Positions 1,601-60,715 of a DNA stretch of 64,000 nucleotides are shown here, piece by piece. The notes below the pieces were generated by a model that made no database searches, had not been told where the DNA came from, and saw only the letters and a list, made by a program, of their open reading frames with translations. Position 1 is the first letter of the stretch. Every line of letters starts with the position of its first letter. This DNA is from Patescibacteria group bacterium (lineage in GTDB: Bacteria > Patescibacteriota > Microgenomatia > UBA12405): the NCBI GenBank assembly GCA_018902845.1, contig JAHIPV010000001.1, positions 12,124-76,123 of the forward strand, in the 5' to 3' direction. Both the position numbers and the translations under genes were made by a program.

Positions 1601-2402
1601 AGAACTGGAAAAGATAGTCCAAGAAGAAAAAGCAAAAAACTCACTTGGTTTATATATACGCAACCTGCTTAAAGAATATCTTCAGGTTTACATACTCTAT
1701 TATATTTACACTTCAAAAGAGTATCAAAAGAACTTAATTTTTACCGGAGGAACATGTTTACGCCATTTTTATAATCTTGAGCGTCTTTCCGAAGATCTTG
1801 ATTTTGACTATATAAAAGAATTTGACACAAAAATACTGCAACAAAGCATAACTGATTTTTTTGCCAAAAAATACAAATACAAAATCCTAAGTTCCTTAAA
1901 ACAGCAAGGTAGACAACTCCTTTTAAAATTTCCTGTTTTGCATAGTTTGGGTCTAGCAACAAAAGAAGAGAGTGATTTACTTTATGTCAAAATTGATTTA
2001 TCAAAGAACCCATCAAAACATTACAAAAGTATAGTTAGTTCAAAAAGCAAATTTGGATTTAATTTTGTTGCCATACATTATGATTTAAGTAATTTAATGA
2101 CAGGTAAAATTCATGCTATTTTAACTCGCCAATTTCTAAAAGGCAGAGATTATTTTGATTTGCTTTTTTTCTTAAAAAATTCAACTCAGCCAAATCTCAA
2201 AAGATTATCTGATATCTTAAACCAAAAGATAACAAAGAAAAAGTTAGAAAAAATTCTGGACAAAAAAGTAGAAGAATTAACCACAAAATACAAAAATCAA
2301 TTTCAATCCGATCTAGCCCCTCTTATCAAAAACCCAGATACTTTAGATCTATACATCAACAACTACAAAAACGAATACCTCCGTAATAAAAAATACACTT
2401 AA
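1590..2402 (+). CDS. AbiEii/AbiGii-family nucleotidyltransferase toxin
   Basis: Motif IFTGGTCLRHFYNLERLSEDLDFDY matches the GGTAL...R.SEDIDF signature of AbiEii toxins. Confidence 0.65.
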   Translation: MIIKELEKIVQEEKAKNSLGLYIRNLLKEYLQVYILYYIYTSKEYQKNLIFTGGTCLRHFYNLERLSEDLDFDYIKEFDTKILQQSITDFFAKKYKYKILSSLKQQGRQLLLKFPVLHSLGLATKEESDLLYVKIDLSKNPSKHYKSIVSSKSKFGFNFVAIHYDLSNLMTGKIHAILTRQFLKGRDYFDLLFFLKNSTQPNLKRLSDILNQKITKKKLEKILDKKVEELTTKYKNQFQSDLAPLIKNPDTLDLYINNYKNEYLRNKKYT

Positions 2403-2408
2403 AAATTT

Positions 2409-3572
2409 CTAAAACAACCCGCCCAATTTTTCCCAGCCAACAACTGTCCCTAGTGACCTTTTTTGCCCCTCATTTCCTCCATAAACAACAAAAGAATTTT
2501 TTGGATCAGTTTTACTTAAATTTTGCCAATAGGAAAGATTTTTAAAAAAATTAGATGAAATAGTTTGTCCTGACTTTATTTCAACAGCTTTAATTTTTCC
2601 ACCTTCTTCAATTAAGCAATCTATTTCATGTCCGCTTTTATCCCTAAAATAACTAAGATTCATTATTTTCCCTCTATTAAAACGATTTTTAACCAATTCC
2701 GATATTACAAATGTTTCAAACAAGGATCCACGCAAAGGGTGGGTAATTAATTGTCTTTTGTTTTCTATTCCCAAAAGCGAACAAGCCAAGCCGGTATCAT
2801 AAAAATATAATTTTGGTGATTTAATCAATCTTTTATTAAAGTTTTTTCTATAAGGCGGTAGTAAATAAATAATATAACTGGCCTCAAGTATCGAAAGCCA
2901 TGAATTTGCCGTATTGTGACTAATACCACAGTCATTTGCAAAAGAAGAAAGACTCAAAATTTGTCCTGTTCTGCCGGCGCAAAGTCGTAAAAACCGTTGA
3001 AATAGTCGCAAATTATTTACATTTTTAATTTGTCGCACATCGCGCTCAAGGTAAGTCTGAACATAGTTAATATACCAATCGAAAGCATTAAGTTTTTTAT
3101 CCCAAATTCGAGGATAAAAACCGGTAAATAAAACAGAATCAAGATTATTACCAAAAACAATTTTACTGTTTTTAAGTTCTTCAAATCCAAAAGGGAGAAG
3201 CGATAAAATGCCAACACGACCAGCCAGACTTTGAGAAATTTTTTCCATAAGCAAAAAATTCTGCGATCCGGAAAGAACATACATCCCGTTTTTGCCTATT
3301 TCATCTGTAAGTGTTTGTAGATACGAAAAAAGTCGAGGTACTTTTTGTATTTCATCAAAAATTACAGGTGCTGGAAAAGTAGCCAAGAATCTTTTTGGAT
3401 CTTCCTCTGCAAAAGCTCTTTTATCTGGATCTTCCAAAGAAACATAAGTTCGTTTTGGAAATAAATGTTTTAAAAGTGTTGTTTTCCCGGATTGACGCGG
3501 ACCTGTAATAGTTACAATCGGAAAAGATTTTAAATAACCTTTAATTTTTTTGCTTAATTCTCTTTTAATCAT
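2409..3572 (-). CDS. AAA-family ATPase (AAA_14 + DUF4143 type)
   Basis: Walker A TGPRQSGKTTLLK near the N-terminus. 387 aa with a typical DUF4143 C-terminal half. Confidence 0.7.
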   Translation of the reverse strand: MIKRELSKKIKGYLKSFPIVTITGPRQSGKTTLLKHLFPKRTYVSLEDPDKRAFAEEDPKRFLATFPAPVIFDEIQKVPRLFSYLQTLTDEIGKNGMYVLSGSQNFLLMEKISQSLAGRVGILSLLPFGFEELKNSKIVFGNNLDSVLFTGFYPRIWDKKLNAFDWYINYVQTYLERDVRQIKNVNNLRLFQRFLRLCAGRTGQILSLSSFANDCGISHNTANSWLSILEASYIIYLLPPYRKNFNKRLIKSPKLYFYDTGLACSLLGIENKRQLITHPLRGSLFETFVISELVKNRFNRGKIMNLSYFRDKSGHEIDCLIEEGGKIKAVEIKSGQTISSNFFKNLSYWQNLSKTDPKNSFVVYGGNEGQKRSLGTVVGWEKLGGLF

Positions 3573-3852
3573 ATAAAACGAGTATAAGCCATACTGGACA
3601 AATTGTCAATCTAATTCTCAATTTGTCCAAAACTCCAATCACAAATTTATTGCTGATAGTTTATTTGATTTATAATTACTATAAACATGAATTTAAACAA
3701 TATAAAAATCAGAATTCTAAAACAAACCAAAAAATATTTCTTTTATCGATTGTGCCAACCTTGTCGCTATAAAACATTACAACCTAGACAAAATCTTCTC
3801 CTTCGACAAATTTTATCCAAAAACCCTCCATTTTTGTTAAAATACATTCACT

Positions 3853-3923
3853 GACACGGTGGCCGAGCGGTTAGGCAATGGTCTGCAAAACCATGTAGGC
3901 GGGTTCAACTCCCGCTCGTGTCT
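3853..3923 (+). tRNA. tRNA-Cys (anticodon GCA)
   Basis: Cloverleaf with acceptor GACACGG/TCGTGTC, D arm GCC-AGCGGTTAG-GGC, anticodon arm ATGGT-CTGCAAA-ACCAT, T arm GCGGG-TTCAACT-CCCGC, discriminator T. Confidence 0.8.
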
Positions 3924-3945
3924 CATTTTTACTGTAAAATAGGCA

Positions 3946-11330: not shown

Positions 11331-12044
11331 ATGCTTCTCACCAAAGAAAAAATCAATCAAAAAAAGGGAATAAAAGCCGAACAGACGGATCTTGTCGAAA
11401 CTATTTCAAAAGTCGATAAAACCAGCAAAAACCGTCGTTTTGTTATCATCGCTCTTTTAGTTACCATTGGCTTGTCCGCCATTTTTGCAATTTATGACCT
11501 AGTTAAAAAAACAACCCAAAACGGTAAATATACTGATTTTTTGTCAAAAATTTCCCTCTCTAAACCTCAAACCGATATACCAACAAAAGATATCTCAACA
11601 CCAAACATTGACATATCTAGCCTTATTGAAGAAAAAATTATCAATCATCAGGGTGTTTGGTCTTTTTACATCAAATATTATTCCTTCGCCTCGCCACAGC
11701 CTTCAGCGTCGGCGGGTTCTGATTCGGAAAAAATTATTTACACCAGAAACGAATCTGTTTTTTTCTCTAAAAACAATCCAAGCGAAATTTTAAAATCTCT
11801 AAAAGACCCAGATGATAAACAGGCAAAAATATTTACAAAAAACTTACCGGACGGTTTAGAAATCTATGAAAAAAATCAATCAACAGAAAATTCAATCGAA
11901 TCGCATCTTCTTATCATTCTTCCAAACAATAAACAAATCTTTATTCTTATTAAGACTACCGAAGTTAAAGACAATTCTCAGCTCCCATCCCTTATATCTC
12001 AACTCGTATCTGATATCTACTGGTCCCTCCTTCAATCAGACTAA
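11331..12044 (+). CDS. Hypothetical membrane-anchored protein
   Basis: 237-aa ORF with a single N-terminal TM (FVIIALLVTIGLSAIFAIY). No family recognised. Confidence 0.4.
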   Translation: MLLTKEKINQKKGIKAEQTDLVETISKVDKTSKNRRFVIIALLVTIGLSAIFAIYDLVKKTTQNGKYTDFLSKISLSKPQTDIPTKDISTPNIDISSLIEEKIINHQGVWSFYIKYYSFASPQPSASAGSDSEKIIYTRNESVFFSKNNPSEILKSLKDPDDKQAKIFTKNLPDGLEIYEKNQSTENSIESHLLIILPNNKQIFILIKTTEVKDNSQLPSLISQLVSDIYWSLLQSD

Positions 12045-14284
12045 TTTATTGTTGGTGTCGGGGTTGTTTTGGGCAAACATCTGACTCCATTCTCTGTTCC
12101 CTTAACAAAATAACCTTCTTTTCCACAAACCGTTGTCTTAACTATTCCCTCGGGCATTTGCCACTTCTCTTCTTCACGATTTTCTAGTATTTCCGTCATT
12201 ATTCTATTCCAAATCGGTGTTGCTCCCGAAATTCCCGAAGCTACCCAGCTCATCGGGCTACCATCGTTATTGCCTACCCAGCTGGCTACTAGCACTGACG
12301 GTGTCCATCCTATACACCAATTGTCTTTTAAATTATTAGTTGTACCGGTTTTTACCGCCACAGTCCTTTCCGGAATTTTTAACTTGGAATTAAAACCAAA
12401 AATAGGAGCCCTGGCCGTATCGTCACTCAAGGCTTCATTTATCAAAAAAGCTAATTCACTGGAAACAACCCTATTTTTGTCCGTCTCCTTTTCGTAAATT
12501 CTTTCGCCTAAATAATTTTCAACTCTTAAGATGGGATTAACTTCATTTTTTTTTCCTTCATTGGCAAAAATGCTATACGCCTCAGCCAGTTCAGTCATTT
12601 TTACTTCTCCCGCTCCCAGTGCCAAAGACAATCCAAATCTACTTCTATCTTTCCAGCTAGTGATCCCCATTTCTTCGGCCAAATCTATCATATCCATTAC
12701 TCCGTTTTTTTCTAGTAATTTTACCGACGGAATATTTAAAGACGAAGCTAGGGCGATTTTTAAAGTAACAGTTCCCATGTATTTCCCGTTGTAATTTTGT
12801 GGAGAATAGGGATCTTGTCCGGCAATTTGGTAAGTGATACGGTCATCGTCTATCAGTGAAGATAGTGTCCATCCTTTTTTCAAAGCTAAAAGGTAATTAA
12901 TCGGCTTAATTGAAGACCCCGGTTGTCTCAATGCCACTGTTACGTTGAATTTTCCGTCAACATCGTTCGTATAATAATCTTTTGATCCCACCATTGACAA
13001 TATATCTCCGTTTTTTGTGTCTATGATTAATACTGCTCCGTTGCTGATTTTCAATTTTAAGACTTTTGCTATTTCCTCTTTCACAATTTTTTCTGCCATT
13101 AATTGTTTTTCTCTGTCTAAGCTTGTAACAATTCTAAGTCCTGATTTTTCAATATTTTCAAAATTTAGTTTTTCTTCTAGATACTTTTTGACATAAAAAA
13201 CAAAATGTGGAAATTCTATATTTTTAATATTATTTTTTATTTTTATTTCTTCTCCTGACACCTTTTTTGCTATCTCTTCATTTATAAAACCGGCCTTCAC
13301 CATTTCATCTAACACTCTTTTTTGTCTTAACAATGCAAATTCCGGATTTTTTCCATAAGGAGAATAAGAGCTTGGCGCCGCTGGTAATCCTGCCAAAAAA
13401 GCTGCTTCAGCCAAATTTATTTCCCAAACGTTCTTATCAAAATATTTAAGAGATGCTTCTTGCACTCCGTAACTTTCTCCTCCATAAGCCACTTGGTTAA
13501 AATATCGTTCTAGTATTTCATTTTTTGGCAGTTTCCATTCCAAAGCTATCGCCAAAACTGCTTCTTTCAATTTTCTCTTCCATGTTTTTTCACTACCCAA
13601 AAATACATTTTTAACTACCTGTTGGGTTATGGTAGATCCTCCTCTTGGTGGGAACTGGTCTTTTCTTAAGTTGTAAAGTATCGCCTGAAAAACCCCTTTT
13701 AAAGAAAATCCCGAATGGCGGTAAAAATCTTTGTCTTCAATAGAAATTGTTGCCCATACTAAAGTTTGTGGAATTTTAGACAGGGGAATCCAAGTTCTAT
13801 TTTCATCTTCATAAAATTTGTAAAGTAAACTCCCGTCTCTATCCACTATTTTGCTTGACATTGGTGGGGGAGTATAAATTTTTTCAATATCGGGTAAATC
13901 AATCAAAATTTCTTTATAGAATATATAAATTCCAAAACTAAAAACTCCCATCAACAGCGACCCCAGTAACCAAACAATCCACATCCAATTTGCTTTTTTC
14001 TTTGCCTCGCCATTAATCCTTTTCTTTAATCTTTTCTCTTTGCCTCGCCAAAGTTTCCAACGACGGCGGGTTTTCCTCTTCTTCATTTTTCTTTTAAAAC
14101 AATTTTCCCAATTATTAAATTTCTTTATTCGTTTACTTATCTTGTTTTTCTTTGTTTTTTTATAATTCTTAATTCTTAACTCGTAATTCTTAATTAATAT
14201 CATTAACAGTCCAACAATAAGTTTTATTATCCTGTAAATCGGCCTTCCCATCCTTATCAAAAAACTTCTTATCCAAACAAACAT
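12041..14284 (-). CDS. Class A penicillin-binding protein (PBP1A-type transglycosylase/transpeptidase)
   Basis: GT51 motifs EDKDFYRHSGF, GGSTITQQ and RKLKEA; transpeptidase SSIKP...SLN...KTGT. Start uncertain: a basic N-terminal extension suggests an alternative start near 14086. Confidence 0.8.
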   Translation of the reverse strand: MFVWIRSFLIRMGRPIYRIIKLIVGLLMILIKNYELRIKNYKKTKKNKISKRIKKFNNWENCFKRKMKKRKTRRRWKLWRGKEKRLKKRINGEAKKKANWMWIVWLLGSLLMGVFSFGIYIFYKEILIDLPDIEKIYTPPPMSSKIVDRDGSLLYKFYEDENRTWIPLSKIPQTLVWATISIEDKDFYRHSGFSLKGVFQAILYNLRKDQFPPRGGSTITQQVVKNVFLGSEKTWKRKLKEAVLAIALEWKLPKNEILERYFNQVAYGGESYGVQEASLKYFDKNVWEINLAEAAFLAGLPAAPSSYSPYGKNPEFALLRQKRVLDEMVKAGFINEEIAKKVSGEEIKIKNNIKNIEFPHFVFYVKKYLEEKLNFENIEKSGLRIVTSLDREKQLMAEKIVKEEIAKVLKLKISNGAVLIIDTKNGDILSMVGSKDYYTNDVDGKFNVTVALRQPGSSIKPINYLLALKKGWTLSSLIDDDRITYQIAGQDPYSPQNYNGKYMGTVTLKIALASSLNIPSVKLLEKNGVMDMIDLAEEMGITSWKDRSRFGLSLALGAGEVKMTELAEAYSIFANEGKKNEVNPILRVENYLGERIYEKETDKNRVVSSELAFLINEALSDDTARAPIFGFNSKLKIPERTVAVKTGTTNNLKDNWCIGWTPSVLVASWVGNNDGSPMSWVASGISGATPIWNRIMTEILENREEEKWQMPEGIVKTTVCGKEGYFVKGTENGVRCLPKTTPTPTIN

Positions 14285-14333
14285 CTATCTTATTTTAACT
14301 CACTCACACTACCCTTTAAATACCCAAAAGCAA

Positions 14334-16439
14334 TCAATCTGTTTTTTCTACAACTGGACAATCTAAGCAAATAAAATAGCCTCCCGCATCTTCTATTACT
14401 GTTCTTTCTTGCCATTCTGCGTTGGGAATATCTTCTCCCTCTTTAACAATTTGACCGGTATCTTTATTAACCACCACTGTTCTTTTTGTAGGCATACTTT
14501 TTGTAGGCAAAAATTCTTGTTTAAAATATTCATATCTCGAATCACATCCTTCTTCCGGAATCAGTCCTCCGGTTAAGTTACAGATATGCATACCAACTAT
14601 ACTAGCGGGCATTACCGGCTTTTTAACCAACTTATCTTCCAGTATTTTTGTCATAACATCATTCCAAATCGGTGAAGCTCCAGTTATTCCGGATACCACC
14701 CATCCCATTTTTGAATTATCATTATTTCCTACCCAGCTAGATACTACATAATCAGCAGTAAAACCTATTGTCCAGTTATCTCTCATATCGTTAGTTGTAC
14801 CCGTTTTCACTGCCACTTCCGGATGGTCTTTTATGTTCAACAATGATCCTCTACCAAATACCATTGATCTGGCGCCATCATCAGATAAGATATGTTGAAT
14901 CAAAAAAGCCGTTTCTCTAGACAAAACTCTTTCTCCTGGTATATATTCATACTCGTCAATCACCTCTCCGTTCCTATCCCTTACTTCCAAGACATAATTT
15001 AAGTCTTGCTTGATTCCCATGTTAGCAAAAACACCAAAAGCGGTATTCATATCTATCATCTGCACTTCTCCTCCTCCTAAAGTTAACGACAAACCATAAT
15101 TAGAGGCATCTTTAAAGGTACTGATTCCCATGCTTCTAGCAAAATCTACAAAAGTTTCTACTCCGTTTATTTCTAGCATTTTTACTGCCGGAATATTTAA
15201 TGAATTTCCCAAACAATTTCTCAAAGATTGTATTCCATAATAAGACCAACCGTAATTAGTCGGGCAATAATCTTTTTGGTTTATCATCTTAAAACAAGTC
15301 TCTTTATCACCAAAAACCGATGCCGCCGTTACATTTCCAAGTTCCAATCCCAAAGCATAATTCAGTGGTTTGATCGAGGAACCGGGTTGTCTTAATGCTG
15401 TTGTCACATTAAACTGCCCATTAATATCATTGGCAAAATAATCTTTTGACCCCACCATTGCCAGCACTTGTCCGGTTTTAGCCTCTGTCACCAACACTGC
15501 CCCGTTCGTTACATCGTATTTTTCGATTTTAGCAATTTCAGAGGCTACACTTGTTTGTACATAATCCTGCAATTCCATATCTAAGGTAGTTGTCACTTTC
15601 AAGCCTCCTTCCTGGATTTTTTTTAGTCCATATTTTTCAGTCAATTTTTCTCGCACCAAAAGTACAAAATGAGGAGCCAATATTCCTTTTTTCGAGACGA
15701 AGTATTTAAGTTCCCCTGTTTTGGCATTTTCCATTTCTTCTTTGCTTATAAATCCTTCTTCGTTCATTCTTTGCAAAACCAATTCTTGTCTTTTTTTTGC
15801 CGCTTCAGGATGAGCAAAAGGGGAGTATTGTGTCGGTGATGCCGGCAATCCGGCAATCAAAGCTGACTCGGCTAAATTTAATTCTGATACGTTTTTGTCA
15901 AAAATACCTTTTGCCGCCGCTTGTGCTCCCCAAAGAGTTCCGCCATATGGAGTTTGGTTGAAATACATTTCAAGAATTTGATTTTTCGAATACAAAATCT
16001 CCACCATCCCGGTTAACAGCGCCTCTTTGATTTTTCGCTTTATTGTTCTTTCTGGAGTTAGTAAGGCATTTTTTACTAATTGCTGGGTTATGGTCGATCC
16101 CCCTTGCAATCTTTTTTTAAAAATCGTTCTATATAATCCTCTGGCAATTCCTTTCAGATCGAATCCAAAATGTTTGTAAAATTTAGTGTCCTCAATCGCC
16201 AGAGTTGCGTTTTTTAAATCTTTTGGTATCTGGTCCAAATCTACCGGAACCCTATTCTTGTCAGAGAATATCTCATACAAAAGTTTTCCTTTTCTGTCAA
16301 AAATTAGGGATGACTCAGGGTATTCGTGTGTAGATAATTTTCTCGGACTTGGTAAATCTCTAAGCAAAAAAACAACCAACAAAAAAACCAACCCCAATAC
16401 TCCCAAATATATCCACCTCTTTTTTTTACTCTTCTTCAT
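14334..16439 (-). CDS. Class A penicillin-binding protein (PBP1A-type), second tandem copy
   Basis: EDTKFYKHFGF, GGSTITQQ, SSIKP, SLN and KTGTT motifs. N-terminal TM anchor. Confidence 0.85.
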   Translation of the reverse strand: MKKSKKKRWIYLGVLGLVFLLVVFLLRDLPSPRKLSTHEYPESSLIFDRKGKLLYEIFSDKNRVPVDLDQIPKDLKNATLAIEDTKFYKHFGFDLKGIARGLYRTIFKKRLQGGSTITQQLVKNALLTPERTIKRKIKEALLTGMVEILYSKNQILEMYFNQTPYGGTLWGAQAAAKGIFDKNVSELNLAESALIAGLPASPTQYSPFAHPEAAKKRQELVLQRMNEEGFISKEEMENAKTGELKYFVSKKGILAPHFVLLVREKLTEKYGLKKIQEGGLKVTTTLDMELQDYVQTSVASEIAKIEKYDVTNGAVLVTEAKTGQVLAMVGSKDYFANDINGQFNVTTALRQPGSSIKPLNYALGLELGNVTAASVFGDKETCFKMINQKDYCPTNYGWSYYGIQSLRNCLGNSLNIPAVKMLEINGVETFVDFARSMGISTFKDASNYGLSLTLGGGEVQMIDMNTAFGVFANMGIKQDLNYVLEVRDRNGEVIDEYEYIPGERVLSRETAFLIQHILSDDGARSMVFGRGSLLNIKDHPEVAVKTGTTNDMRDNWTIGFTADYVVSSWVGNNDNSKMGWVVSGITGASPIWNDVMTKILEDKLVKKPVMPASIVGMHICNLTGGLIPEEGCDSRYEYFKQEFLPTKSMPTKRTVVVNKDTGQIVKEGEDIPNAEWQERTVIEDAGGYFICLDCPVVEKTD

Positions 16440-17067
16440 GCCACTCTTCCAATTCTACAATCAATTCCTCTAATTCACTTTTTTGATTTTTTGTACTGGT
16501 TGCCATACTTCTCAAAACCTCTTCATTCTCAAGATCCTCTAAATTTCTTTTAAATACTTCTCTATAAACCAAACGGGCATCGTCTAGCTGGGAATCTATT
16601 AATTTTTTTTCACTCTCCTCTATCTTTAGCGACCATTCTTTTGATTTTTTTAATTTTTTAACAGCATCTCGTGCTGATTTCAAGGACAAGCTTGTTTTAT
16701 TTTTTTCCATCAGTAACAAGCTCTCTGATATCCTTTTATCGGCCAAAAATAATAGCAATTTTGATTTATCCACCGGCTCTCTGGCTAGTTTTAACCATAG
16801 ATAATTCCTTATTTCTTTAAAACCATAAAAAAAATTGTCCGGCAGGGTTTTTATCTCTGGTAGTTTGTAATTTATTTTTACCCTCCTTCCTTCTTTGTTT
16901 ACCTTTTCTACACTTATTGGTTTAACTCGGTAACTATCATAATTTTTTTCACTAGCCAACACTTCCCATGACGTTGCCACCAGAGAAACGAATAAAATCC
17001 CTAAAGATACAAAAAAACACATCAATACATAATAAACATACCCACTTCCTAGATTAATCTTTTTCAT
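16426..17067 (-). CDS. Hypothetical membrane-anchored coiled-coil protein
   Basis: N-terminal TM then a charged coiled-coil region. Overlaps the PBP start by 14 nt, suggesting an operon. Confidence 0.4.
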   Translation of the reverse strand: MKKINLGSGYVYYVLMCFFVSLGILFVSLVATSWEVLASEKNYDSYRVKPISVEKVNKEGRRVKINYKLPEIKTLPDNFFYGFKEIRNYLWLKLAREPVDKSKLLLFLADKRISESLLLMEKNKTSLSLKSARDAVKKLKKSKEWSLKIEESEKKLIDSQLDDARLVYREVFKRNLEDLENEEVLRSMATSTKNQKSELEELIVELEEWHEEE

Positions 17068-28422: not shown

Positions 28423-29245
28423 TTATCAAATCAAGCGCAAGTCGATTCATTCCATTCACCTCCATATTAAGGGCAAAAATTCTTTCTATATTTCTTGCCC
28501 ATACCTCACCCCCAATTTTGTCATAAATAGATTTATTATAAAAAATTCTACCTGGATATTAAAAAACTCAAAAAAAATCTTTAGCTGCCCTAAACTCTCG
28601 CAACTCAAAAATCTAGGTATTTTAGGCAAAAAATATAAAATAAATATCACTAAATCCCCCAAAAATAGTTTTAGTATTAATCACAATACCAGCGTCATTC
28701 AGGTAACTGCCAATACGCTTTATCAACACCATCTCAAAAAACTTTTTGAAAAAAATCTCCGCCCTCTGGCTCTAGATTTAATCAAAAAAGAAATTAATGC
28801 TGTCATTCCCAATTCTTTTGTAGGGGCGACCCTTGCGGTCGCCCGCAGACATGGCAACCTGTCCGCCGTCAAAGAATCCCCCGCCTGCAACGTTGTAGCA
28901 ACTGCGGGCAGGCGTCGGAAAAAACCTGTCATCCCGAGCGTAGTCGAGGGATCCCGTCGGAACTGTAAAAGCTCACTCCTTCGTCCCACCAAAATTTCCG
29001 TTCGTAATCAAAAAACTCGTTTTGGATCCTGTTCAGCCAAGGGCAGTCTTTCCTTCAATTGGCAAATAATTTTTTTTCCGTCCGACAAATTCCGCCACAT
29101 TGTTCTTCATGAACTGGTTCATCTAAAAATAAAAAATCATTCCAAAAATTACTGGCACGCTCTCTCCCTTCTGGATCCCAACTGCAAAATCAACAATAAA
29201 TGGCTAAAAACTCACGGCAACCACCACTTTCTCATCAAGCCCTAA
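28388..29245 (+). CDS. YgjP-like (DUF45/SprT-like) metal-dependent hydrolase with a ~55-aa in-frame repeat insertion
   Basis: RFGSCSAKGSLSFNW...HIVLHELVHLKIKNHSKNYW (the WGSCS / HEL.H..NHS motifs of the YgjP family). Central segment ...GATLAVARRHGNLSAVKESPACNVVATAGRRRKKPVIPSVVEGSRRNCKSS... is encoded by the GC-rich element at 28799-28972. Confidence 0.6.
   Translation: MKQININNKPFTYQIKRKSIHSIHLHIKGKNSFYISCPYLTPNFVINRFIIKNSTWILKNSKKIFSCPKLSQLKNLGILGKKYKINITKSPKNSFSINHNTSVIQVTANTLYQHHLKKLFEKNLRPLALDLIKKEINAVIPNSFVGATLAVARRHGNLSAVKESPACNVVATAGRRRKKPVIPSVVEGSRRNCKSSLLRPTKISVRNQKTRFGSCSAKGSLSFNWQIIFFPSDKFRHIVLHELVHLKIKNHSKNYWHALSLLDPNCKINNKWLKTHGNHHFLIKP
28799..28972. repeat. Composite GC-rich palindromic element (family A) inside a CDS, in-frame
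   Basis: Hairpins ggcgacccttgcggtcgcc and cgcctgcaacgttgtagcaactgcgggcaggcg, followed by the core cctgtcatcccgagcgtagtcgagggatcccgtcggaactgtaaaag. Confidence 0.75.
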
Positions 29246-30041
29246 TTTCAATTCCAACCGGACAATGATCCGATCCTAATACTTCCGGCATTATAAAAGC
29301 CTTTTTAATCTTATTTTTTAAACTTTTATCAATAAAAAAATAATCTATCCGCCAGCCCACATTTCTCCCCCTAGCCCCACTTCTTTGACTCCACCACGAA
29401 TATTGCCCTGCTTCTTTACAAAACAATCTAAAACTATCCAAGTATCCATTTTTAATTACTTTATCAATCCATTTTCTTTCTATTTCCAAAAAACCGGAAG
29501 TATTTACATTATCTTTTGGTCTAGCCAGATCAATCTCTTTGTGTGCTGTGTTTACATCCCCGCAAAAAATTATCTTTTCTCCATTTTTCCGCAATTCGTT
29601 AATATATTTCAAAAAATGTTCATAAAAATCCAATTTATACTTCAATCTACCCTTATCTCGTTTTCCGTTGGGGAAGTAAACATTAAGTAGCGTAAAATTA
29701 TCAAATTTCGTTACCACCATTCTACCTTCTTTATCATAAAAATCACTATTTTCAGGGTCATTGATAATCATTCTTGGTTCTAATTTAGTGAAAGTAGCTA
29801 CTCCTGAATATCCGGCTTTTTCAGCCTCATTCCAATATGAAAAATAATCATTAGGCGATCCTTCGGCTTGCTCTGCCTTAGCCCTAGTTTCTTGAAAACA
29901 ATATATATCAGCTTTATCCTTTTTTGCAAATTCCCACAATCCCTTTCTCACTGCCGCTCGTATCCCGTTCACATTCCAAGAAATGATACGAATAGTTTTG
30001 GTCATAAATTTATTATAGCCTCTTGCAAGTATAAACTTCAT
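29235..30041 (-). CDS. xth: Exodeoxyribonuclease III (AP endonuclease, Xth family)
   Basis: IRIISWNVNGIRA...YCFQETR...FYDKEGRMV...SDHCPV. Probable true start at the internal Met (MTKTIRIISWNVNG, ~30005). Confidence 0.85.
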   Translation of the reverse strand: MKFILARGYNKFMTKTIRIISWNVNGIRAAVRKGLWEFAKKDKADIYCFQETRAKAEQAEGSPNDYFSYWNEAEKAGYSGVATFTKLEPRMIINDPENSDFYDKEGRMVVTKFDNFTLLNVYFPNGKRDKGRLKYKLDFYEHFLKYINELRKNGEKIIFCGDVNTAHKEIDLARPKDNVNTSGFLEIERKWIDKVIKNGYLDSFRLFCKEAGQYSWWSQRSGARGRNVGWRIDYFFIDKSLKNKIKKAFIMPEVLGSDHCPVGIEIRA

Positions 30042-30087: not shown

Positions 30088-30381
30088 ATGCACACACAAA
30101 CAGTAAAATTACAAAAAATAGGCAATTCTTTTATGGCTACCATCCCCATAGATTTGGTTAGGGCTAGTAAATTATCAATCGGAGACGATCTTGTTTTTAG
30201 TAAAGCCAAAAAATACAGTGATAAGTTATTGGGTTTCAATATCAAAATAAAAAAAGTTCGCAAAAAGAAACCAAAACTCAAAAGCTTTGCACAAGCAAAC
30301 AGCAAGCCAACTCTTTCAATTCCAAATTTTAGTATGAAACAAGTTCTAAAATGGAAACATGAGGCGCGCTATGATCGATAA
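30088..30381 (+). CDS. AbrB/MazE/SpoVT-family antitoxin (VapB-like)
   Basis: TVKLQKIGNSFMATIPIDLVRASKLSIGDDLVF looped-hinge-helix (swapped-hairpin) motif. Overlaps the downstream PIN gene. Confidence 0.55.
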   Translation: MHTQTVKLQKIGNSFMATIPIDLVRASKLSIGDDLVFSKAKKYSDKLLGFNIKIKKVRKKKPKLKSFAQANSKPTLSIPNFSMKQVLKWKHEARYDR

Positions 30382-30787
30382 AATTTATCTTGACGCTAGT
30401 TTTTTTGTCGCTCTTCAAATAAAAGAACACATTTTTTATCAGAAAGCTTGGAAGAAAATTAACAAAAGCCAATCTATAAAAATTTATTTTTCCTTATTCA
30501 CCCTAGATGAAGCAATTCATGTTTTAAAAAAATATAAGCTAAGTAAAAGTAAAATTATAAAAATCGTAAAAGATAAGTTAATAAACACAAACAAAAGCAT
30601 ACTTATCTCTTATAAAGATGACAAAAAAACATCGCTAAAATACTTAAATCTGTGGCAAAAATATAATCTAAGACCAATAGATTCGGTTCATCTCTTTTTA
30701 ATGAAACAACACAAAATAAAAACCATTGCCACCTTCGACAATGACTTCATAAAAAACAAAAAACAACTAGGTATCAAAGTTTTATAA
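30359..30787 (+). CDS. PIN-domain toxin (VapC-like)
   Basis: IYLDASFFVAL N-terminal PIN acidic motif and C-terminal TFDNDF. Confidence 0.65.
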   Translation: MRRAMIDKIYLDASFFVALQIKEHIFYQKAWKKINKSQSIKIYFSLFTLDEAIHVLKKYKLSKSKIIKIVKDKLINTNKSILISYKDDKKTSLKYLNLWQKYNLRPIDSVHLFLMKQHKIKTIATFDNDFIKNKKQLGIKVL

Positions 30788-30836
30788 ACAAAAACCCTGT
30801 CTTCTTCATCCTTTTTCTGTTATAATTTTTCCCAAT

Positions 30837-30908
30837 CCAGCGGTAGCAAAGCGGTTATGCAATGGTCTGTAAAACCATCCTAGGTAGGTTCGACTCCTAC
30901 CCGCTGGA
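30837..30908 (+). tRNA. tRNA with anticodon GUA (Tyr), class I (short variable loop)
   Basis: Acceptor CCAGCGG/CCGCTGG, anticodon arm ATGGT-CTGTAAA-ACCAT, variable loop CCTAG, T arm GTAGG-TTCGACT-CCTAC. The anticodon arm differs from the tRNA-Cys at 3853 by a single C->T. Confidence 0.6.
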
Positions 30909-30951
30909 CAAAAGTCATTTTTCTCTTTTTTTCTGTATAATTAACTCCACT

Positions 30952-31788
30952 ATGTCTCCTGCCATAATCCCAAAAAAATATTGTCAAATAGGTAAATCTC
31001 GTATCGCTTATATCGAAGCAGGTGACCAAAACTTACCTCATCTTTTGTTTATCCACGCTTGGCCTTCCTCCTCCGATATGTTTATCCCTGTTATTCATAA
31101 GCTTTCAAGAAAATTTAATATTCTTGCTCCGGATTTACCGGGTTTTGGCCGTTCTCAGGGTTTCAAAAAAAAATACACTTACAAATCATTTGTCGTTTTT
31201 ATAAAAAAATTCTTAAAAGCAAAAAACATCGAAAAAACCCACCTTTGTGGCTCTTCTCTTGGTGGTGCAATAGCTTTGGAATTTGCCTATCGCTACCCCA
31301 AAAAAGTAAACAAGTTAATTTTAAACGCCCCGCCTCTTTATCTTTATCCATTTCACAAAAACAAAAGTGAAATAGTTAGTTTCATCAGCAAAAAATTTCC
31401 ATCCTTGACCAATAATTTTTTAAACAAAATCAAAAAAAACAAACTTACTTATGTCTATTTCCTTCTTCGGGATCATTATCAGGGTATCGACAGAAATTTT
31501 ATTAAATACATTTTTGAGGAAGCTGTCAAAAGCAAAAATAAGGCGGTTCTAGATATTCTTAAAGAAATAGTAAACAGGGATTTGCGTCCTCATGTTTCCA
31601 AAATTAAAGCCAAAACATTAATAATTACAGGCAAAGATGATTATCCGGAACTTGTAAAAGATACTATGTACCTAAAAAAACACATTTCAAATTCCAAGTT
31701 ATTTTTGATAAAAAACAGCAACCATCGCTTGTCTGTCTGTAAGTCAGATATTTTCTCTCAAACCATATTCGGCTTCCTCCAAAAATAA
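30952..31788 (+). CDS. Alpha/beta-fold hydrolase
   Basis: LLFIHAWPSSS...GFGRS...HLCGSSLGGAIALEFA (nucleophile elbow GxSxG). Start placed at MSPAII; upstream ORF residues overlap the tRNA. Confidence 0.6.
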   Translation: MSPAIIPKKYCQIGKSRIAYIEAGDQNLPHLLFIHAWPSSSDMFIPVIHKLSRKFNILAPDLPGFGRSQGFKKKYTYKSFVVFIKKFLKAKNIEKTHLCGSSLGGAIALEFAYRYPKKVNKLILNAPPLYLYPFHKNKSEIVSFISKKFPSLTNNFLNKIKKNKLTYVYFLLRDHYQGIDRNFIKYIFEEAVKSKNKAVLDILKEIVNRDLRPHVSKIKAKTLIITGKDDYPELVKDTMYLKKHISNSKLFLIKNSNHRLSVCKSDIFSQTIFGFLQK

Positions 31789-31809: not shown

Positions 31810-32874
31810 GTGTTTCTAAATTCCCTAAATTTACAAAATTTCCGTTCCTACTCATCAAAGTCTGTTGATTTTCTTTCCAATGTCAACCTAATATTTGGCC
31901 CCAACGGTTCGGGGAAAACTAATATTTTAGAAGCCATATTTCTTCTTTCGGGGGCAAATTCATTTCGGGCTTCAAGATTGGCTCAGATGATTTCTTGGCA
32001 AAAAAACTTCGCTTCAATCCAAGGAAAATTAAATAAAAATAATGAAAACAATGACCTGGAAGTCCAATTAATAAAACAAGATGCTAATAGAATTTCCGTA
32101 TCGCATCGTTTTTTGGTTCAAAAAGTTCAAAAAACCAGAAAATTTTTTTTGAGCCATCTTAAAGCCGTTCTCTTTCACCCTGGCGATATTCGTTTAGTTT
32201 CTGGTTCTCCATCTCGTCGTCGTGATTTTATAGACTCTTTTCTCTCTCGTCTAGAGTGGTCCTATGCTTCCGCCTTGTCTCAATATAATAAATCCATCAA
32301 ACACAGAAACGAGTTGTTAGATTTAATTTTTCAAAAACAAGCATCTGTAAACGAATTATTTTTTTGGGATCAATCTTTAATAAAAAATGGCAACATTTTA
32401 TATCAATATCGTAAAAAATTTTTTGAATCTGCCAATAGTTTTTTCAAACAAAACAAAAACATACAAATACAGCAAATATCACTTCAATATTTAACTTCAA
32501 TTATCAGTAAGGAAAAATTAGATTCCAATCTTAATTTTGATATTAAAAACAAAAACACTGGATTTGGTCCGCATCGTGATGATTATCAGTTTGATAATAT
32601 TTCTTTTCCTTCAGAAGACAAAAATTTAGCCAATTGGGGGAGTGGTGGACAGCAAAGATTAGCCGTTTTAGCCTTAAAACTCGCCCAAGTTAATTATATT
32701 GAAAGCAATTACAACCAAACACCTATCCTTCTTCTCGATGACATTTTTTCAGAATTAGACCAAGACCATCGCCATCTGGTTGTAAGTCTTTGCAAAAATC
32801 ATCAGGTCTTTATCACTACCTCCAGTCCTCGAGTCCAAAAACTTTTGCCTAGTGCAAAAGCATTTTATTTATAA
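31810..32874 (+). CDS. recF: DNA replication and repair protein RecF
   Basis: LNLQNFRSYSS...NLIFGPNGSGKTNILEAIFLLS Walker A, and the C-terminal LLLDDIFSELD signature. Confidence 0.8.
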   Translation: MFLNSLNLQNFRSYSSKSVDFLSNVNLIFGPNGSGKTNILEAIFLLSGANSFRASRLAQMISWQKNFASIQGKLNKNNENNDLEVQLIKQDANRISVSHRFLVQKVQKTRKFFLSHLKAVLFHPGDIRLVSGSPSRRRDFIDSFLSRLEWSYASALSQYNKSIKHRNELLDLIFQKQASVNELFFWDQSLIKNGNILYQYRKKFFESANSFFKQNKNIQIQQISLQYLTSIISKEKLDSNLNFDIKNKNTGFGPHRDDYQFDNISFPSEDKNLANWGSGGQQRLAVLALKLAQVNYIESNYNQTPILLLDDIFSELDQDHRHLVVSLCKNHQVFITTSSPRVQKLLPSAKAFYL

Positions 32875-33532
32875 TATAATACCTCCACACTTAACTTACT
32901 GTTGCCTAATTGCAAAAAACCTCCAAAAGATTTCCAAATCCGAGGAGTTTTTAATTTGTCTAAAGCAACTAAGTTAAAAGTACCTTAACATCAATCAATG
33001 TGCGTTTTCATTAGTCATGATTGTTAGTATCAGAGGATGAAATCCTGATGATTTTGTTTACAAAATCTATTAGGATATTTTTTCAAAACTTTTTTCAGTT
33101 TATTTAAAACTGAACCCCTTGCAGATTAAAACCTGTCAAGGGTTGATACTAAGAGTTTGATCGTGGCTCAGGGTGAACGCTGGCGACGTGCCTAAGACAT
33201 GCAAGTCGAACGAGATTCGTATTTTACATAAGGAAATTACATAATAATTTTCTTGTGTAGAATACGATGACAGTGGCGAACGGGTGAGTAATAAGTACGA
33301 ACGTACCTCTAAGTGGAGCATAGCCTCGAGAAATCGTGGATAATACTCCATAGTCCTCGTATTTCATACAAGGAAATTCAAAGCACTAATATCTAAACTC
33401 AAAACTTTTTTGTTTTGGATTTTGAATATTTAGATTTTAAATTTATTTAGGATTTCGATATTAGAATTTAGGATTTTCTCGCATGGAATGCGAGGTAAAG
33501 ATTTATCGCTTAGAGAGCGGCGTACTCGCTAC

Positions 33533-33565
<33 letters not shown>

Positions 33566-34750
33566 GATGACGGCTACCGGCTCTTAGCGGAGGGTCCGGC
33601 ACAATGGGACTGAGACACGGCCCATACACCTACGGGTGGCAGCAGTTAGGAATATTGCGCAATGGACGAAAGTCTGACGCAGCGACGTCGCGTGTGGGAT
33701 GACGGCCTTCGGGTTGTAAACCACTTTTATTTCGTCATCATGGCGAGATGAATAAACAGCTACTAATTACGTGCCAGCAGTCGCGGTAATACGTAAGCTG
33801 TAAGCGTTACCCGGTTTTATTGGGCGTAAAGGGTCTGTAGGTGGTTTTTTAAGTCCTATTTCAAAGACTCCGACTTAATCGGAGAAAGGGGTAGGATACT
33901 GAAAGACTAGAGTTATATCGGGGTTACTGGAATTTATAGCGTAGGGGTAAAATCCGTGGATACTATAAAGAACACCAAGGGCGAAGGCGGGTAACTAGGT
34001 ATACACTGACACTGAAAGACGAAAGCTAGGGGAGCAAATCAGATTAGAGACCTGAGTAGTCCTAGCTGTAAACGATGTCTGTTAGTTCTACGAGCTTATG
34101 CTTGTGGGATGTAAGCTAACGCGTTAAACAGACCGCCTGGGGAGTATAGCCGCAAGGCCGAAACTCAAACGAATTGGCGGGGAGGCGCACAACCAGTGGA
34201 GCATGTGGTTTAATTCGATACGAAGCGATGAACCTTACCTGGGCTTGAAATCCTGTTTATGTTTTTCCCGAAAAGGAAAAACTCAGTGGCAGGACAGCTG
34301 TTGCATGGCTGTCGTCAGCTCGTGACGTGAGTTGTTCTCTTAAGTGAGGTAACGAGCGCAACCCCTATTCTGTGTTATTTTTTCACAGAAGACTGCTCAG
34401 CATTATTTTTGTTGGGAGGAAGGAGGGGACGACGTCAAGTCAGCATGATGCTTATGTCCAGGGCGACACACATCCTACAATGGGAAGTACAATGAGTTGC
34501 AATACCGCGAGGTGGAGCTAATCTATAAAACTTCCCTCAGTTGGGATTGCAGGCTGAAATTCGCCTGCATGAACTTGGAATTGGTAGTAATCGCAGATCA
34601 GCAGACTGCGGTGAATACGTTCTCGCCTCTTGCACACACAGCCCGTCAAATCAGCAAAGTTGAGGGTGCCCGAAGGACTCCGATCAATCGGAGGACTAAG
34701 GTAAATTCAGCGATGAGGGTTAAGTCGTAAATTGTTGCGACTCATGGAAG

Positions 34751-35471
34751 TAATTCCATGAACAAATCTGGCTGTATCGGGGAAATCTAAGTCCTAGTGT
34801 TAAAATTAGGATATGACAACCGCGAGGGAACCCGACCGTTTTTCTAAAAAACAACCGGGACTCCGTAGAGACTATACGCCAGCGCCTCAAATCAGTAAAT
34901 CTTATTTACTTGGAATTTTGCACGACGCCACAGAAAGAAAAACAACTTTTAGAATTAGTCAAAAAAGTGAAATTTTTGTCAAATTTATTGCCAAAGAAAT
35001 CAAAAGACTTGGTTCTGGAGCTTGGGTCTATAAAGAAGGGAAAAACAGAAATGTCTACGTTGTAGAATTTTCAAAAAGTTTTCTTAAAGGATTCAAGATA
35101 AAAACCAGACAAGACAAAATTGACTACATTCGAGGTTATTTTGATTCTGAGGGAGGTATTGCACATCATCCAAAAGTTCGTTTTTATATTTATTTTTCTC
35201 AAAAAGATATAAATGATCTTAAGGAAGTTAAGCAATGTCTCAAAGAATTAAATATTTCTTGTGGAAAAACGCATAATCCAAGCAAAAAAGTAGATCCTGA
35301 TTATTGGCGATTTTATATTTTAAGCAAATCTTACAAAGATTTTGCTAAAATTATTGGGTCCTTCCACCCAATCAAGAATCGTCTTTTGAGGATGAAGAGA
35401 TAGTCCGTACCCTTGGAAACAAGGGAATCGATTTTATTAGTTTTTTTAATAATTAAGTAAAATCAAATGAA
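34751..35471 (+). mobile_element. Intervening sequence (probable group I intron) in 16S rRNA at the E. coli ~1506 site, carrying a homing endonuclease ORF
   Basis: Insertion between conserved ...GGTTAAGTCGTAA and CAAGGTATCCGTACTGGAAGGTGCGGATGGATCACCTCCTT. Contains ORF 34813..35403. Confidence 0.6.
34813..35403 (+). CDS. LAGLIDADG-family homing endonuclease (intron-encoded)
   Basis: LLGILHDATE and IRGYFDSEGG are the two LAGLIDADG motifs of a single-chain homing endonuclease. The ORF lies wholly within the 16S insertion. Confidence 0.65.
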   Translation: MTTAREPDRFSKKQPGLRRDYTPAPQISKSYLLGILHDATERKTTFRISQKSEIFVKFIAKEIKRLGSGAWVYKEGKNRNVYVVEFSKSFLKGFKIKTRQDKIDYIRGYFDSEGGIAHHPKVRFYIYFSQKDINDLKEVKQCLKELNISCGKTHNPSKKVDPDYWRFYILSKSYKDFAKIIGSFHPIKNRLLRMKR

Positions 35472-43538: not shown

Positions 43539-43955
43539 ATGAATTATTTCAACAAAAATTCACTAGACTATAAATTTATAGAAAAGTTCGAGGCTGGTTT
43601 AGTTTTAACCGGCTCAGACGCAAAATCATTGCGCACCCAAGGTATTCAATTTGGTGCCGTCAAAGTCGAGATAATAAACAACCGTCCTTTTTTGATTAAC
43701 TTAGATATTCCACTTTATAAATTCACCTCAAAAAATACTCTCTACGATACTACCCGCAATCGCGCCTTGCTCTTAAATTACAAACAAATCGCCAAACTAA
43801 TTTCCTACCGCAAGCAAAAATATATGATTATACCCATCTCAATTTACATCAAAAACAATTTCTTCAAAGCCGAAATTGGCATTGGCCGCAAAATGCGTAA
43901 ATACGAAAAACGCCAAAAAATAAAAGACAAAGAAATGAAGAAAAAACTTGGTTAA
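43539..43955 (+). CDS. smpB: SsrA-binding protein SmpB
   Basis: FEAGLVLTGSDAKSLR...TTRNRALLLNYKQI...KAEIGIGRKMRKYEKRQ SmpB signature blocks. Confidence 0.8.
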   Translation: MNYFNKNSLDYKFIEKFEAGLVLTGSDAKSLRTQGIQFGAVKVEIINNRPFLINLDIPLYKFTSKNTLYDTTRNRALLLNYKQIAKLISYRKQKYMIIPISIYIKNNFFKAEIGIGRKMRKYEKRQKIKDKEMKKKLG

Positions 43956-44057: not shown

Positions 44058-44132
44058 AAAAAGAGGACCTGTCCTGTAGTTAAAAACGAAAAGAGGACCT
44101 GTCCTCCGTAGCTCCAGTTCACTGGAGCGAAG
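44058..44132 (-). terminator. Tandem intrinsic terminators for the minus-strand transcript
   Basis: Two copies of AAAGAGGACCTGTCCT. On the minus strand each forms a GAGGA-CAGG-TCCTC hairpin followed by a T-run; a CTCCAGTGAACTGGAG hairpin lies just upstream. Confidence 0.45.
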
Positions 44133-44464
44133 GAGGAGATGCTCAGGTATGACCCGAGGTCCAAAAAACGATTTAAAAAACTTACTACAAGCTTAACTTG
44201 CTTAAAACTTAATCTTTGAAAAACAAAACAAGTCAATTTTTCCAAAGTGTCGATTGTTTGTGATTCTACTCACTCTTAAATAATTCAAGAATCGAGACTC
44301 AAATTATCGTGTTCCAGTTTAGTTGACACCCTTACTTATTCCCTCTGGAATAGAAAATAAAAGGATGACTCTCTCGCTTAAGCCTAAGCTACAGCAAGAT
44401 TTAAATTGAAATTGCTACCGGTAGAATAACCGACACCACTTTCAACTCTCGAAAGATTAGCCCC
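44085..44464 (-). ncRNA. ssrA: Candidate tmRNA (ssrA), tentative
   Basis: Minus-strand 5' end GGGGCTAATCTTTCGAGAGTTG resembles the tmRNA 5' tRNA-like end. It is followed ~50 nt later by a short reading frame AAT TTC AAT TTA AAT CTT GCT GTA GCT TAG GCT TAA (tag ...NFNLNLAVA with tandem stops). Convergent with smpB. The 3' tRNA-like end could not be identified. Confidence 0.25.
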
Positions 44465-44633
44465 AGCAAGAGCTAGGACATTTCTTAAAGCACTGCCGAA
44501 TGTATTGGCATGTTTTTTTTGATTTTGTTTTACGGCTGTTAATCAAAGCCGGCTTGCAGTTTTTTAAAGTGCATTTTCTGTCGATGCAATTACATCTCCT
44601 TGAGCACAAATTATACCAAAAATTTCGCCAAAG

Positions 44634-59680: not shown

Positions 59681-60715
59681 ATGAACAAATTAAACAATAA
59701 AAAAAAATCATCTATCTCGAATAAACCTCGTATTCTCACTGGCGACAGGCCTACCGGCCCCATGCACTTAGGCCATTACGTTGGCTCACTAAAAAATCGC
59801 GTCAAGTTACAAGATACTTACGACTGTTTTTTTATCATTGCTGATCTTCACATGTTAACCACTACTCTTAGTAAAGAAAAAACGTCAAAAATCAACCAGT
59901 TAAGCAGGGGATTAGTTCTTGATTATTTATCTGTTGGTATTGATCCGGAAAAATGTGTAATTTATCAGCAAAGCAAAGTTCCAGAAGTAGCCTATCTTTC
60001 CCTTCTTTTTTCTATGTTAGTCACAGTTCCCCGTTGTCAGCGTGTCCCCACTCTAAAAGATGTTATGCATGATTTGAAAATCAAAAAACCATCTCTTGGC
60101 CTTTTAACTTATCCGGTTTTGCAAGCCGCCGATATTCTTATGGTCAAAGGTAATCTGGTTCCGGTAGGCAAAGATCAAGAAAGCCATGTCGAAATCAGCA
60201 GAGAAATTGCCAAAGCTTTTAATAAAATGTATGGAGAAGTTTTTCCAGTCCCAAAAGCACTCATAGGCGATACCGGCACATTGATCGGCACCGATGGTCA
60301 AGCCAAAATGAGTAAATCAATCGGTAATTGTATTTATCTTTCCGACGATCAAGAAACTGTCAACCAAAAAGTCATGGGTATGTATACCGATCCTAACCGC
60401 ATTCACCCGACAGATCCAGGAAAGGCCATAGGCAATCCCGTTTTTATTTATCACGATGCTTTTAACACTAACAAAGGTGAAGTTGAGGATCTTAAAGATA
60501 GATACAAAAAAGGTAAAGTTGGCGATGTAGAAGTTAAGCAAAAATTAGCCAAGGCTATAAACAATTTTCTTGATCCAATCAGAAAAAAACGAGCCAAATA
60601 CGAAAGAAAAACAGATCTAATTAATCAGATTATCAAACAAGGTTCCCAAAAAGCCCGCCTGGAAGCACAACAAACCTTAAACCAAGTTCTCAAGACCATG
60701 GGAATTAAAAACTAA
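59681..60715 (+). CDS. trpS: Tryptophan--tRNA ligase
   Basis: [20 protein letters not shown] (HIGH region) and KMSKSIGN (KMSKS). ~340 aa class Ic. Confidence 0.85.

Follow-up and report, generated by a model that had tools for sequence, protein, structure and literature searches.

A tyrosine tRNA gene with the shape and the end of its archaeal and eukaryal counterparts lies at positions 30837-30908 of the plus strand in the 64,000-nucleotide stretch of DNA analysed here (the window). Judged from its sequence and that of its homologues, the gene is real and conserved, and it very probably encodes the functional tyrosine tRNA of a CPR bacterium that has switched to archaeal/eukaryal identity rules. 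An extended -10 promoter of its own would drive the gene, giving a transcript with just a few leader bases to which CCA would later be added. The resulting tRNA would offer C1-G72, A73 and the anticodon GUA without a long variable arm, would be charged by an archaeal/eukaryal-type TyrRS of about 340 amino acids that lacks a C-terminal S4-like domain and is encoded elsewhere in the genome, and would decode UAU and UAC as tyrosine. If so, a bacterium can decode tyrosine by archaeal/eukaryal tRNA and synthetase logic, and a further, apparently large CPR clade illustrates that the rules of tRNA identity are not tied to the domain of life.

The tRNA-Tyr gene, its promoter and its relatives

Two tRNA genes were called in the window by ARAGORN, a tRNA-Cys(gca) and a tRNA-Tyr(gta), the latter at 30837-30909(+). 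The interval 30837-30908 matched the Rfam tRNA family RF00005 over its full length (58.0 bits, E 6e-10). Its arms, read from the sequence, are CCAGCGG-TA-GCAA-AGCGGTT-ATGC-A-ATGGT-CTGTAAA-ACCAT-CCTAG-GTAGG-TTCGACT-CCTAC-CCGCTGG-A, which gives 72 nt up to the discriminator. An earlier note, made from the sequence alone, had described a class-I-shaped tRNA(GUA) with a 5-nt variable loop (CCTAG, or CCUAG in the RNA) and a canonical T arm, and this description was borne out by ARAGORN, Rfam and the sequence. The 1-72 pair and position 73 had been named there as identity elements to be checked; the acceptor stem (CCAGCGG/CCGCTGG) has C1-G72 as its first pair and A73 as the discriminator, and the tRNA-Cys gene of the window ends in G1-C72 and U73. 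Further, A37 and A38 are found in the anticodon loop, and G15, G48 and A13.A22 in the core. The gene does not encode CCA, A73 being followed by CAA. Thermodynamic folding gave a near-cloverleaf (z = -2.5), and the strength of the case lies in comparative data rather than in this folding.

The tyrosine identity set of archaea and eukaryotes consists of C1-G72 and A73 (PMC9976931, Table 1; PMC1934993), and bacteria combine A73 with G1-C72 and with a long variable arm (PMC9976931, Table 1 and tyrosine section; PMC1934993). The variable arm (V-arm) and the 1-72 pair underlie the non-cross-reactivity of the bacterial and the archaeal/eukaryal tyrosine systems (PMC1934993). The window tRNA shares A73, GUA and A37 with canonical bacterial class II tRNA-Tyr, but has C1-G72 instead of G1-C72 and a 5-nt loop in place of the long variable arm on which the S4-like domain acts in recognition. 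With archaeal/eukaryal tRNA-Tyr (M. jannaschii, yeast) it has in common the class I form, C1-G72, A73 and GUA, and it differs from them in its bacterial host and promoter, in A37 together with A38, and in G15:G48 rather than G15:C48. It is only 57-59% identical to the M. jannaschii and yeast tRNA-Tyr.

Upstream of the gene, an extended -10 promoter-like element, TGTTATAAT, was read from the sequence at 30818-30826 on the plus strand; it stops 10 nt short of the tRNA's mature 5' end. The element sits in the same place in nearly all relatives, where a TGnTATAAT-like extended -10 sequence ends 9-12 nt before the mature 5' end. A generic sigma-70 scan for -35 and -10 boxes did not report the tRNA-Tyr element, because there is no -35 box. 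Similar elements stand before the tRNA-Cys, the tRNA-Tyr and the tmRNA of the window (TGTTAAAAT at 3835-3843, TGTTATAAT at 30818-30826 and TGGTATAAT at 44608-44616 on the minus strand, respectively). All three stop 9-10 nt short of the mature 5' end and lack a -35 box, a placement from which the primary transcripts would carry leaders of a few nucleotides.

Nine independent assemblies (NCBI MAGs, JGI, ENA and Logan) carry the 72-nt sequence without a single difference. Thus, it is not an assembly artefact, and archaeal contamination or mis-assembly is excluded. Relatives were sought in JGI metagenomes with a degenerate pattern constrained only in parts of the D-arm, the anticodon loop CTGTAAA and the T-loop, with no condition on the acceptor stem or position 73. 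Of the 51 loci obtained, 40 have a class-I tRNA(GUA) homologue of the window gene, in 26 distinct sequences. Every one of these 26 is 72 nt long to position 73 and hence of class I. On the cloverleaf, 99.4% of the cells of these 26 sequences formed standard pairs, and this value dropped to 26-46% in slid controls. Double-sided changes occurred at nine of the 20 pairs, with covariation at pairs 3-70, 5-68 and 7-66, and none of 500 shuffles reached the observed covariation score. Covariation over 26 homologues makes the tRNA-Tyr more than a chance cloverleaf, and since compensatory substitutions keep the cloverleaf in the homologues, the gene is taken as a functional tRNA and not a pseudogene. 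C1-G72 and A73 are each present in 26 of the 26 members. These comparisons place the gene, as far as sequence can tell, under purifying selection as a tRNA of tyrosine identity. For annotators, the consequence is that class-I C1-G72 tRNA-Tyr genes are not to be flagged as pseudogenes or as mis-typed.

The family loci are syntenic with the window, the order being an Exo_endo_phos gene on the minus strand, tRNA-Tyr, recF, 16S and uppS. Orthologues across these loci are only about 45-77% identical, so the family represents a whole clade and not one species. Some of the relatives encode CCA, unlike the window gene. A covariance model (R1) was built from the window's tRNA-Tyr family, and the window tRNA-Tyr scored 100.5 bits against it.

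Other forms of tRNA-Tyr were met in the course of these searches. Class-I tRNA(GUA) genes with G1-C72 and A73 occur at three loci (L109, 866-937; L126, 8515-8585; L131, 1250-1320) and thus combine a bacterial-style end with a short tRNA-Tyr, another departure from canonical class II. Homologues of the window ORFs at 12044-16454, 43-52% identical, are present on two of these contigs, L126 and L131. At L125 (1253-1332), a tRNA-Tyr with C1-G72 keeps a 13-nt variable arm; the V-armed C1-G72 form is the commonest among CPR bacteria according to Mukai et al. (PMC5370408).

Tyrosyl-tRNA synthetases and published CPR systems

The combination of C1-G72, A73 and GUA without a V-arm leads to the expectation that an archaeal/eukaryal-type TyrRS charges the tRNA. 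The window genome probably carries such an enzyme, and the window tRNA is presumably its only tRNA-Tyr. The proposed pairing follows from the strict conservation of C1-G72 and A73, from the homology of the tRNA and from the published pattern. An archaeal/eukaryal-style class I tRNA-Tyr implying a noncanonical TyrRS was one of the two readings offered in the earlier note, and it gains support from the 26 of 26 conservation of C1-G72 and A73 and from linked TyrRS genes in three other CPR lineages.

In these three lineages, a class-I tRNA-Tyr bearing C1-G72 and A73 lies 2-5 kb upstream of the TyrRS genes P0160, P0146 and P0202, on contigs that also bear the bacterial genes for RF-1, L31, S2, EF-Ts and L33. 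The linked tRNAs have the same T arm as that of the window and reach 83-87 bits with the family model. The lineages are distant from the window's organism, with uppS 36% identical. The CPR enzymes recovered were a 343-aa Portnoybacteria-type TyrRS and a 499-aa Dojkabacteria enzyme (L017) with an N-terminal PheT-B2/tRNA-binding domain. Five proteins (P0160, P0146, P0187, P0133 and the Dojkabacteria P0132) were scanned against NCBIfam, and all matched NF006330 with 289-351 bits (cut-off 220); P0160 and P0146 scored 341-351 bits, and P0202 was outside the five scanned. The closest solved relatives of P0160 are the human (E 1e-103) and yeast (2e-96) cytoplasmic TyrRS, with bacterial TyrRS far behind. 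At 343 aa, the tRNA-linked enzymes have no room for an S4-like domain. The CPR TyrRS also keep the residues Arg174, Lys175 and Asp286 of the M. jannaschii enzyme, in which Arg174 and Lys175 contact C1 and G72 (PMC1934993); in keeping these readers of C1-G72 they resemble archaeal/eukaryal TyrRS.

In the window itself, no TyrRS was found; tblastn with the M. jannaschii and Bacillus enzymes returned only the TrpRS paralogue at 59681-60715 (+). This gene (Pfam PF00579) is of the bacterial type, its best PDB matches being bacterial TrpRS (E 1e-113), and the window has no other class Ic synthetase. No second PF00579 gene occurs within 10 kb beyond either end of the window, as followed in other assemblies. 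Proteins were further searched with three queries, namely the M. jannaschii TyrRS, a profile of the Portnoybacteria and Dojkabacteria enzymes, and P0290. Among the matches listed, none of about 360 TyrRS clusters could be tied to the window's MAGs; the member accessions of 20 clusters included none of the window MAG's series, and the contigs of six clusters included none from the window's MAGs. No TyrRS flanks any of the 51 metagenome tRNA loci, and a scan of viral contigs returned only giant-virus TyrRS. Several candidates were rejected as the window genome's enzyme. P0160, P0187 and P0146 lie on contigs of other MAGs or samples, and the TFIIE and L37ae neighbours of P0249 and the 'tail' clade mark these as DPANN. 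P0290, which an exhaustive representative search had singled out as a possible sister clade, was dismissed because its clade proved to be Iainarchaeum/Woesearchaeota, hence DPANN archaeal.

The outcome of the three protein searches, in which no archaeal/eukaryal-type TyrRS of the window genome was among the matches listed, would also fit a clade that has no such enzyme and charges its tRNA-Tyr by a bacterial-type TyrRS with relaxed or changed recognition. There is precedent for a bacterial-type enzyme that is indifferent to N1-N72 and the V-arm (PMC9976931; PMC5370408). Human mitochondrial TyrRS, in particular, accepts V-arm-less tRNA-Tyr with either orientation of the 1-72 pair (PMC9976931). 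Human mitochondrial tRNA-Tyr resembles the window tRNA as a V-arm-less tRNA-Tyr in a translation system of bacterial derivation, but its synthetase is of the bacterial type, retains the S4-like domain and does not discriminate the orientation of 1-72 (PMC9976931), whereas the window family is strictly C-G at this pair. C1-G72 is fixed in all 26 sequences while neighbouring acceptor pairs covary freely, which points to selection on that pair and not to indifference. In addition, homologous tRNAs adjoin archaeal/eukaryal-type TyrRS in three CPR lineages. An adapted bacterial enzyme is thus considered unlikely, and charging by an archaeal/eukaryal-type TyrRS is the preferred reading.

When an alignment of human and archaeal TyrRS was run against genome contigs, the matches listed came mostly from DPANN archaea and from two CPR genomes. 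The DPANN enzymes (Micrarchaeia, Woesearchaeota, Pacearchaeota and Nanoarchaeota; L007-L086) are up to 62% identical to human cytoplasmic TyrRS, and the M. jannaschii enzyme, at 37%, lies far below them. At two loci, a 198-aa ORF with a LAGLIDADG-like motif was found immediately 3' of the TyrRS gene (L087, 4113-4709; L166, 7113-7709). The ORF is 98.5% identical between the two organisms and their TyrRS only 88%, which suggests a mobile homing endonuclease at the locus.

Pairs of this kind are known. Mukai, Reynolds, Crnkovic and Soll (2017, Life 7:8) reported archaea/eukarya-type TyrRS and C1-G72 tRNA-Tyr in Parcubacteria, Microgenomates, Dojkabacteria and Katanobacteria (PMC5370408), and the remark in the earlier note that either of its readings would be unusual was therefore overstated. 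Most of the C1-G72 tRNA-Tyr of CPR bacteria keep the V-arm; a V-arm-less form was reported in Ca. Roizmanbacteria GW2011_GWC2_34_23, and both forms in a Roizmanbacteria genome (PMC5370408). The window gene has the features of the 'archaeal-identity tRNA-Tyr' of 2017, namely C1-G72, A73, GUA, class I form and a CPR host. The similarity extends to the synthetases, as related lineages studied here carry eukaryote- or DPANN-like TyrRS, including the Dojkabacteria enzyme with its N-terminal PheRS-B2-like domain. Unlike the published pairs, the V-arm-less form is spread here across a syntenic clade (26 variants) and Parcubacteria/Portnoybacteria-type lineages. The additions to the 2017 account are modest: tRNA-Tyr without a V-arm is the norm in at least one sizeable CPR clade with shared synteny, as well as in those lineages, and the tRNA body is Cys-like. 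This body, which is not discussed in that paper, is the only new angle. For the engineering of orthogonal pairs, too, it is relevant that C1-G72 class-I tRNA-Tyr has natural hosts among bacteria.

Resemblance to tRNA-Cys

The second tRNA gene of the window, a tRNA-Cys(GCA), was identified by ARAGORN (3853-3924), Rfam (56.8 bits) and sequence at 3853-3923 on the plus strand, and it has U73, G15:G48 and G13.A22. The earlier note had stated that the anticodon arm of the tRNA-Tyr equals that of this tRNA-Cys except for position 35. Reading both genes confirmed this, the arms being AUGGU CUGCAAA ACCAU in tRNA-Cys and AUGGU CUGUAAA ACCAU in tRNA-Tyr. The resemblance reaches into the core of the tRNA-Tyr family, where G15 is invariant, G48 exceeds 90%, and a purine13.A22 mismatch and the D-loop AGCGGTTA / AGCGGUUA are found, features that also occur in the window's own tRNA-Cys. 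G15:G48 is a hallmark of E. coli tRNA-Cys, and U73 is the major Cys determinant (PMC9976931). With E. coli-type tRNA-Cys the window tRNA shares G15:G48, purine13.A22, the D-loop AGCGGTTA, a short variable loop ending in AG and the T-loop TTCGACT; it differs in A73, GUA and C1-G72, and its acceptor stem is unrelated to that of tRNA-Cys. The G15:G48 and 13.22 mismatch core is a resemblance of the body only.

On such likeness, the earlier note had suggested as its other reading a tRNA-Cys-derived anticodon-shift or suppressor-like species. A tRNA with a Cys-like core and anticodon arm might, on this reading, insert cysteine at tyrosine codons as a mis-anticodon or suppressor-like form, or be a non-functional pseudogene. 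As an account of function, this proposal failed. U73 is replaced by A73, and C35 of the GCA anticodon is lost; GUA pairs with UAY, that is UAU and UAC, and with no stop codon. Compensatory evolution, together with a promoter and a synteny conserved over a clade whose proteins are only about 45-77% identical, argues against a pseudogene. A Cys-charged, suppressor-like or dead gene is thus highly improbable. What survives of the proposed derivation from tRNA-Cys is the likeness itself, which is real, gives the best non-Tyr match to the family model and may bear on origin.

With regard to origin, the clade's class-I tRNA-Tyr may be a recruited duplicate of a bacterial tRNA-Cys gene, altered from C35 to U and from U73 to A and fitted with a new C1-G72 pair after the lineage acquired an archaeal/eukaryal TyrRS. 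Import of an archaeal tRNA and loss of the V-arm from a bacterial tRNA-Tyr are the alternatives. Recruitment is regarded as possible but rather doubtful. The anticodon arm, identical to that of the genome's tRNA-Cys apart from position 35, and the Cys-type core of the family (G15, G48, purine13.A22 and the D-loop AGCGGTTA) speak in its favour. Against the family model, tRNA-Cys scored 66.1 bits, the best of the non-Tyr tRNAs in a small background of about 25 other tRNAs, few of them from the window genome; at 68% identity, it is also the tRNA outside the family most similar to the window tRNA-Tyr. The other non-Tyr tRNAs scored at most 50.9 bits, class II tRNA-Tyr 52-55 bits and class-I G1-C72 tRNA-Tyr 64-65 bits, marginally below tRNA-Cys. 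The A37 of the tRNA-Tyr is bacterial-like as well; M. jannaschii tRNA-Tyr has G37.

Several points weaken the case for recruitment. Apart from the small background, there is the CUGNAAA loop common to both, which raises the Cys score. Within the family, the two outer pairs of the anticodon stem vary, and about four of the 26 variants match Cys, so the identity of the arms may be a coincidence. The D-stems of tRNA-Tyr and tRNA-Cys differ in the window genome. Yeast tRNA-Tyr has A13.A22 and A37 too, and the comparison set was free of DPANN tRNA-Tyr sequences. If recruitment is true, it would be a natural re-assignment of tRNA identity driven by horizontal transfer of a synthetase. The Cys-like body, if it holds, would illustrate how, once a synthetase has been replaced, another isoacceptor can be made over into its cognate tRNA.

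Host contig, neighbouring genes and tmRNA

By exact look-ups, proteins of the window were found in NCBI MAGs named 'Patescibacteria group bacterium' (GCA_018897325.1, GCA_018895715.1, GCA_022013015.1 and others), the copy in GCA_018897325.1 being on JAHIKP010000026.1 (81.9 kb). They were also found in assemblies of deep groundwater from JGI, ENA and Logan. The GC content of the window is about 35%. Bacterial markers on the contig include a 16S rRNA gene, a tmRNA adjoining smpB, recF, ValRS and the bacterial TrpRS, and the host contig is bacterial (CPR/Patescibacteria).

To the left of the tRNA-Tyr, the conserved neighbour is a gene of the endonuclease/exonuclease/phosphatase family (Pfam PF03372) at 29235-30041 on the minus strand, orthologues of which, 61-70% identical, adjoin the tRNA in about 25 metagenome loci. 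A MazE-like antitoxin and PIN toxin pair (30088-30787, +; Pfam PF04014 and PF01850) is inserted between this gene and the tRNA-Tyr, and tblastn found it among the relatives only in L145. Directly 3' of the tRNA-Tyr is an alpha/beta hydrolase gene (30952-31788, +; Pfam PF00561) with a clear orthologue only in L145; weaker homologues, 33% identical, adjoin the tRNA in L135, L139 and L144. An ORF at 30862-31788 that overlaps the tRNA-Tyr is an over-extension, the hydrolase starting at the ATG at 30952. The conserved right neighbour is recF (31810-32874, +; Pfam SMC_N, NCBI name RecF), whose orthologues adjoining the tRNA in relatives are 43-77% identical. A full-length bacterial 16S rRNA gene with insertions follows at 33145-34772 on the plus strand (Rfam RF00177, 1247 bits), 2.2 kb from the tRNA-Tyr.

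The MazE/PIN and hydrolase genes that flank the tRNA, with clear orthologues only in L145 among the relatives, might suggest that the tRNA-Tyr belongs to a recently acquired mobile element or, alternatively, to an archaeal (DPANN) contaminant contig. Against this, the contig, 82 kb long, has a bacterial 16S gene 2.2 kb from the tRNA and carries tmRNA/smpB, recF, ValRS and a bacterial TrpRS. The same junctions occur in nine assemblies, and the place beside recF and 16S is kept throughout the clade. Either origin is thus extremely improbable, and a phage or mobile-element tRNA was rejected on the contig context and the clade-wide synteny. The tRNA-Tyr is accordingly read as a resident gene of the bacterial host.

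Genes for toxin-antitoxin systems, defence and mobile elements (AbiEii, DUF4143 ATPase, MazE/PIN, RhuM and Bro-N) are dense in the window at 959-3572, 30088-30787 and 60834-61826 and in its flanks, and its right edge is closely followed by a reverse transcriptase, GIY-YIG genes and an integrase. Compared with the bacterial model, the 16S rRNA gene, 1628 nt long, contains insertions of about 36 and 121 nt. Neither a 23S rRNA gene nor a spacer tRNA was found in the window, and the rRNA genes hence appear unlinked. Outside the window, about 9-10 kb right of its TrpRS, the same genome has two tRNA-Met(CAU) genes clustered with a tRNA called Ile(UAU) (L001, 19695-20224).

The tmRNA gene at 44131-44599 on the minus strand was missed by ARAGORN and recognized by Rfam (63.5 bits); it adjoins smpB (43539-43955). 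Its acceptor stem, GGAGAUG/CAUCUCC, has A-U as pair 3-70 in place of G3.U70, which is normally required by AlaRS. GUCAUAC forms the T-loop, and the 3' tail reads UCCU and not ACCA. The apparent tag frame ends in ...NLAVA*, and both ends of the tmRNA are identical in three other assemblies.
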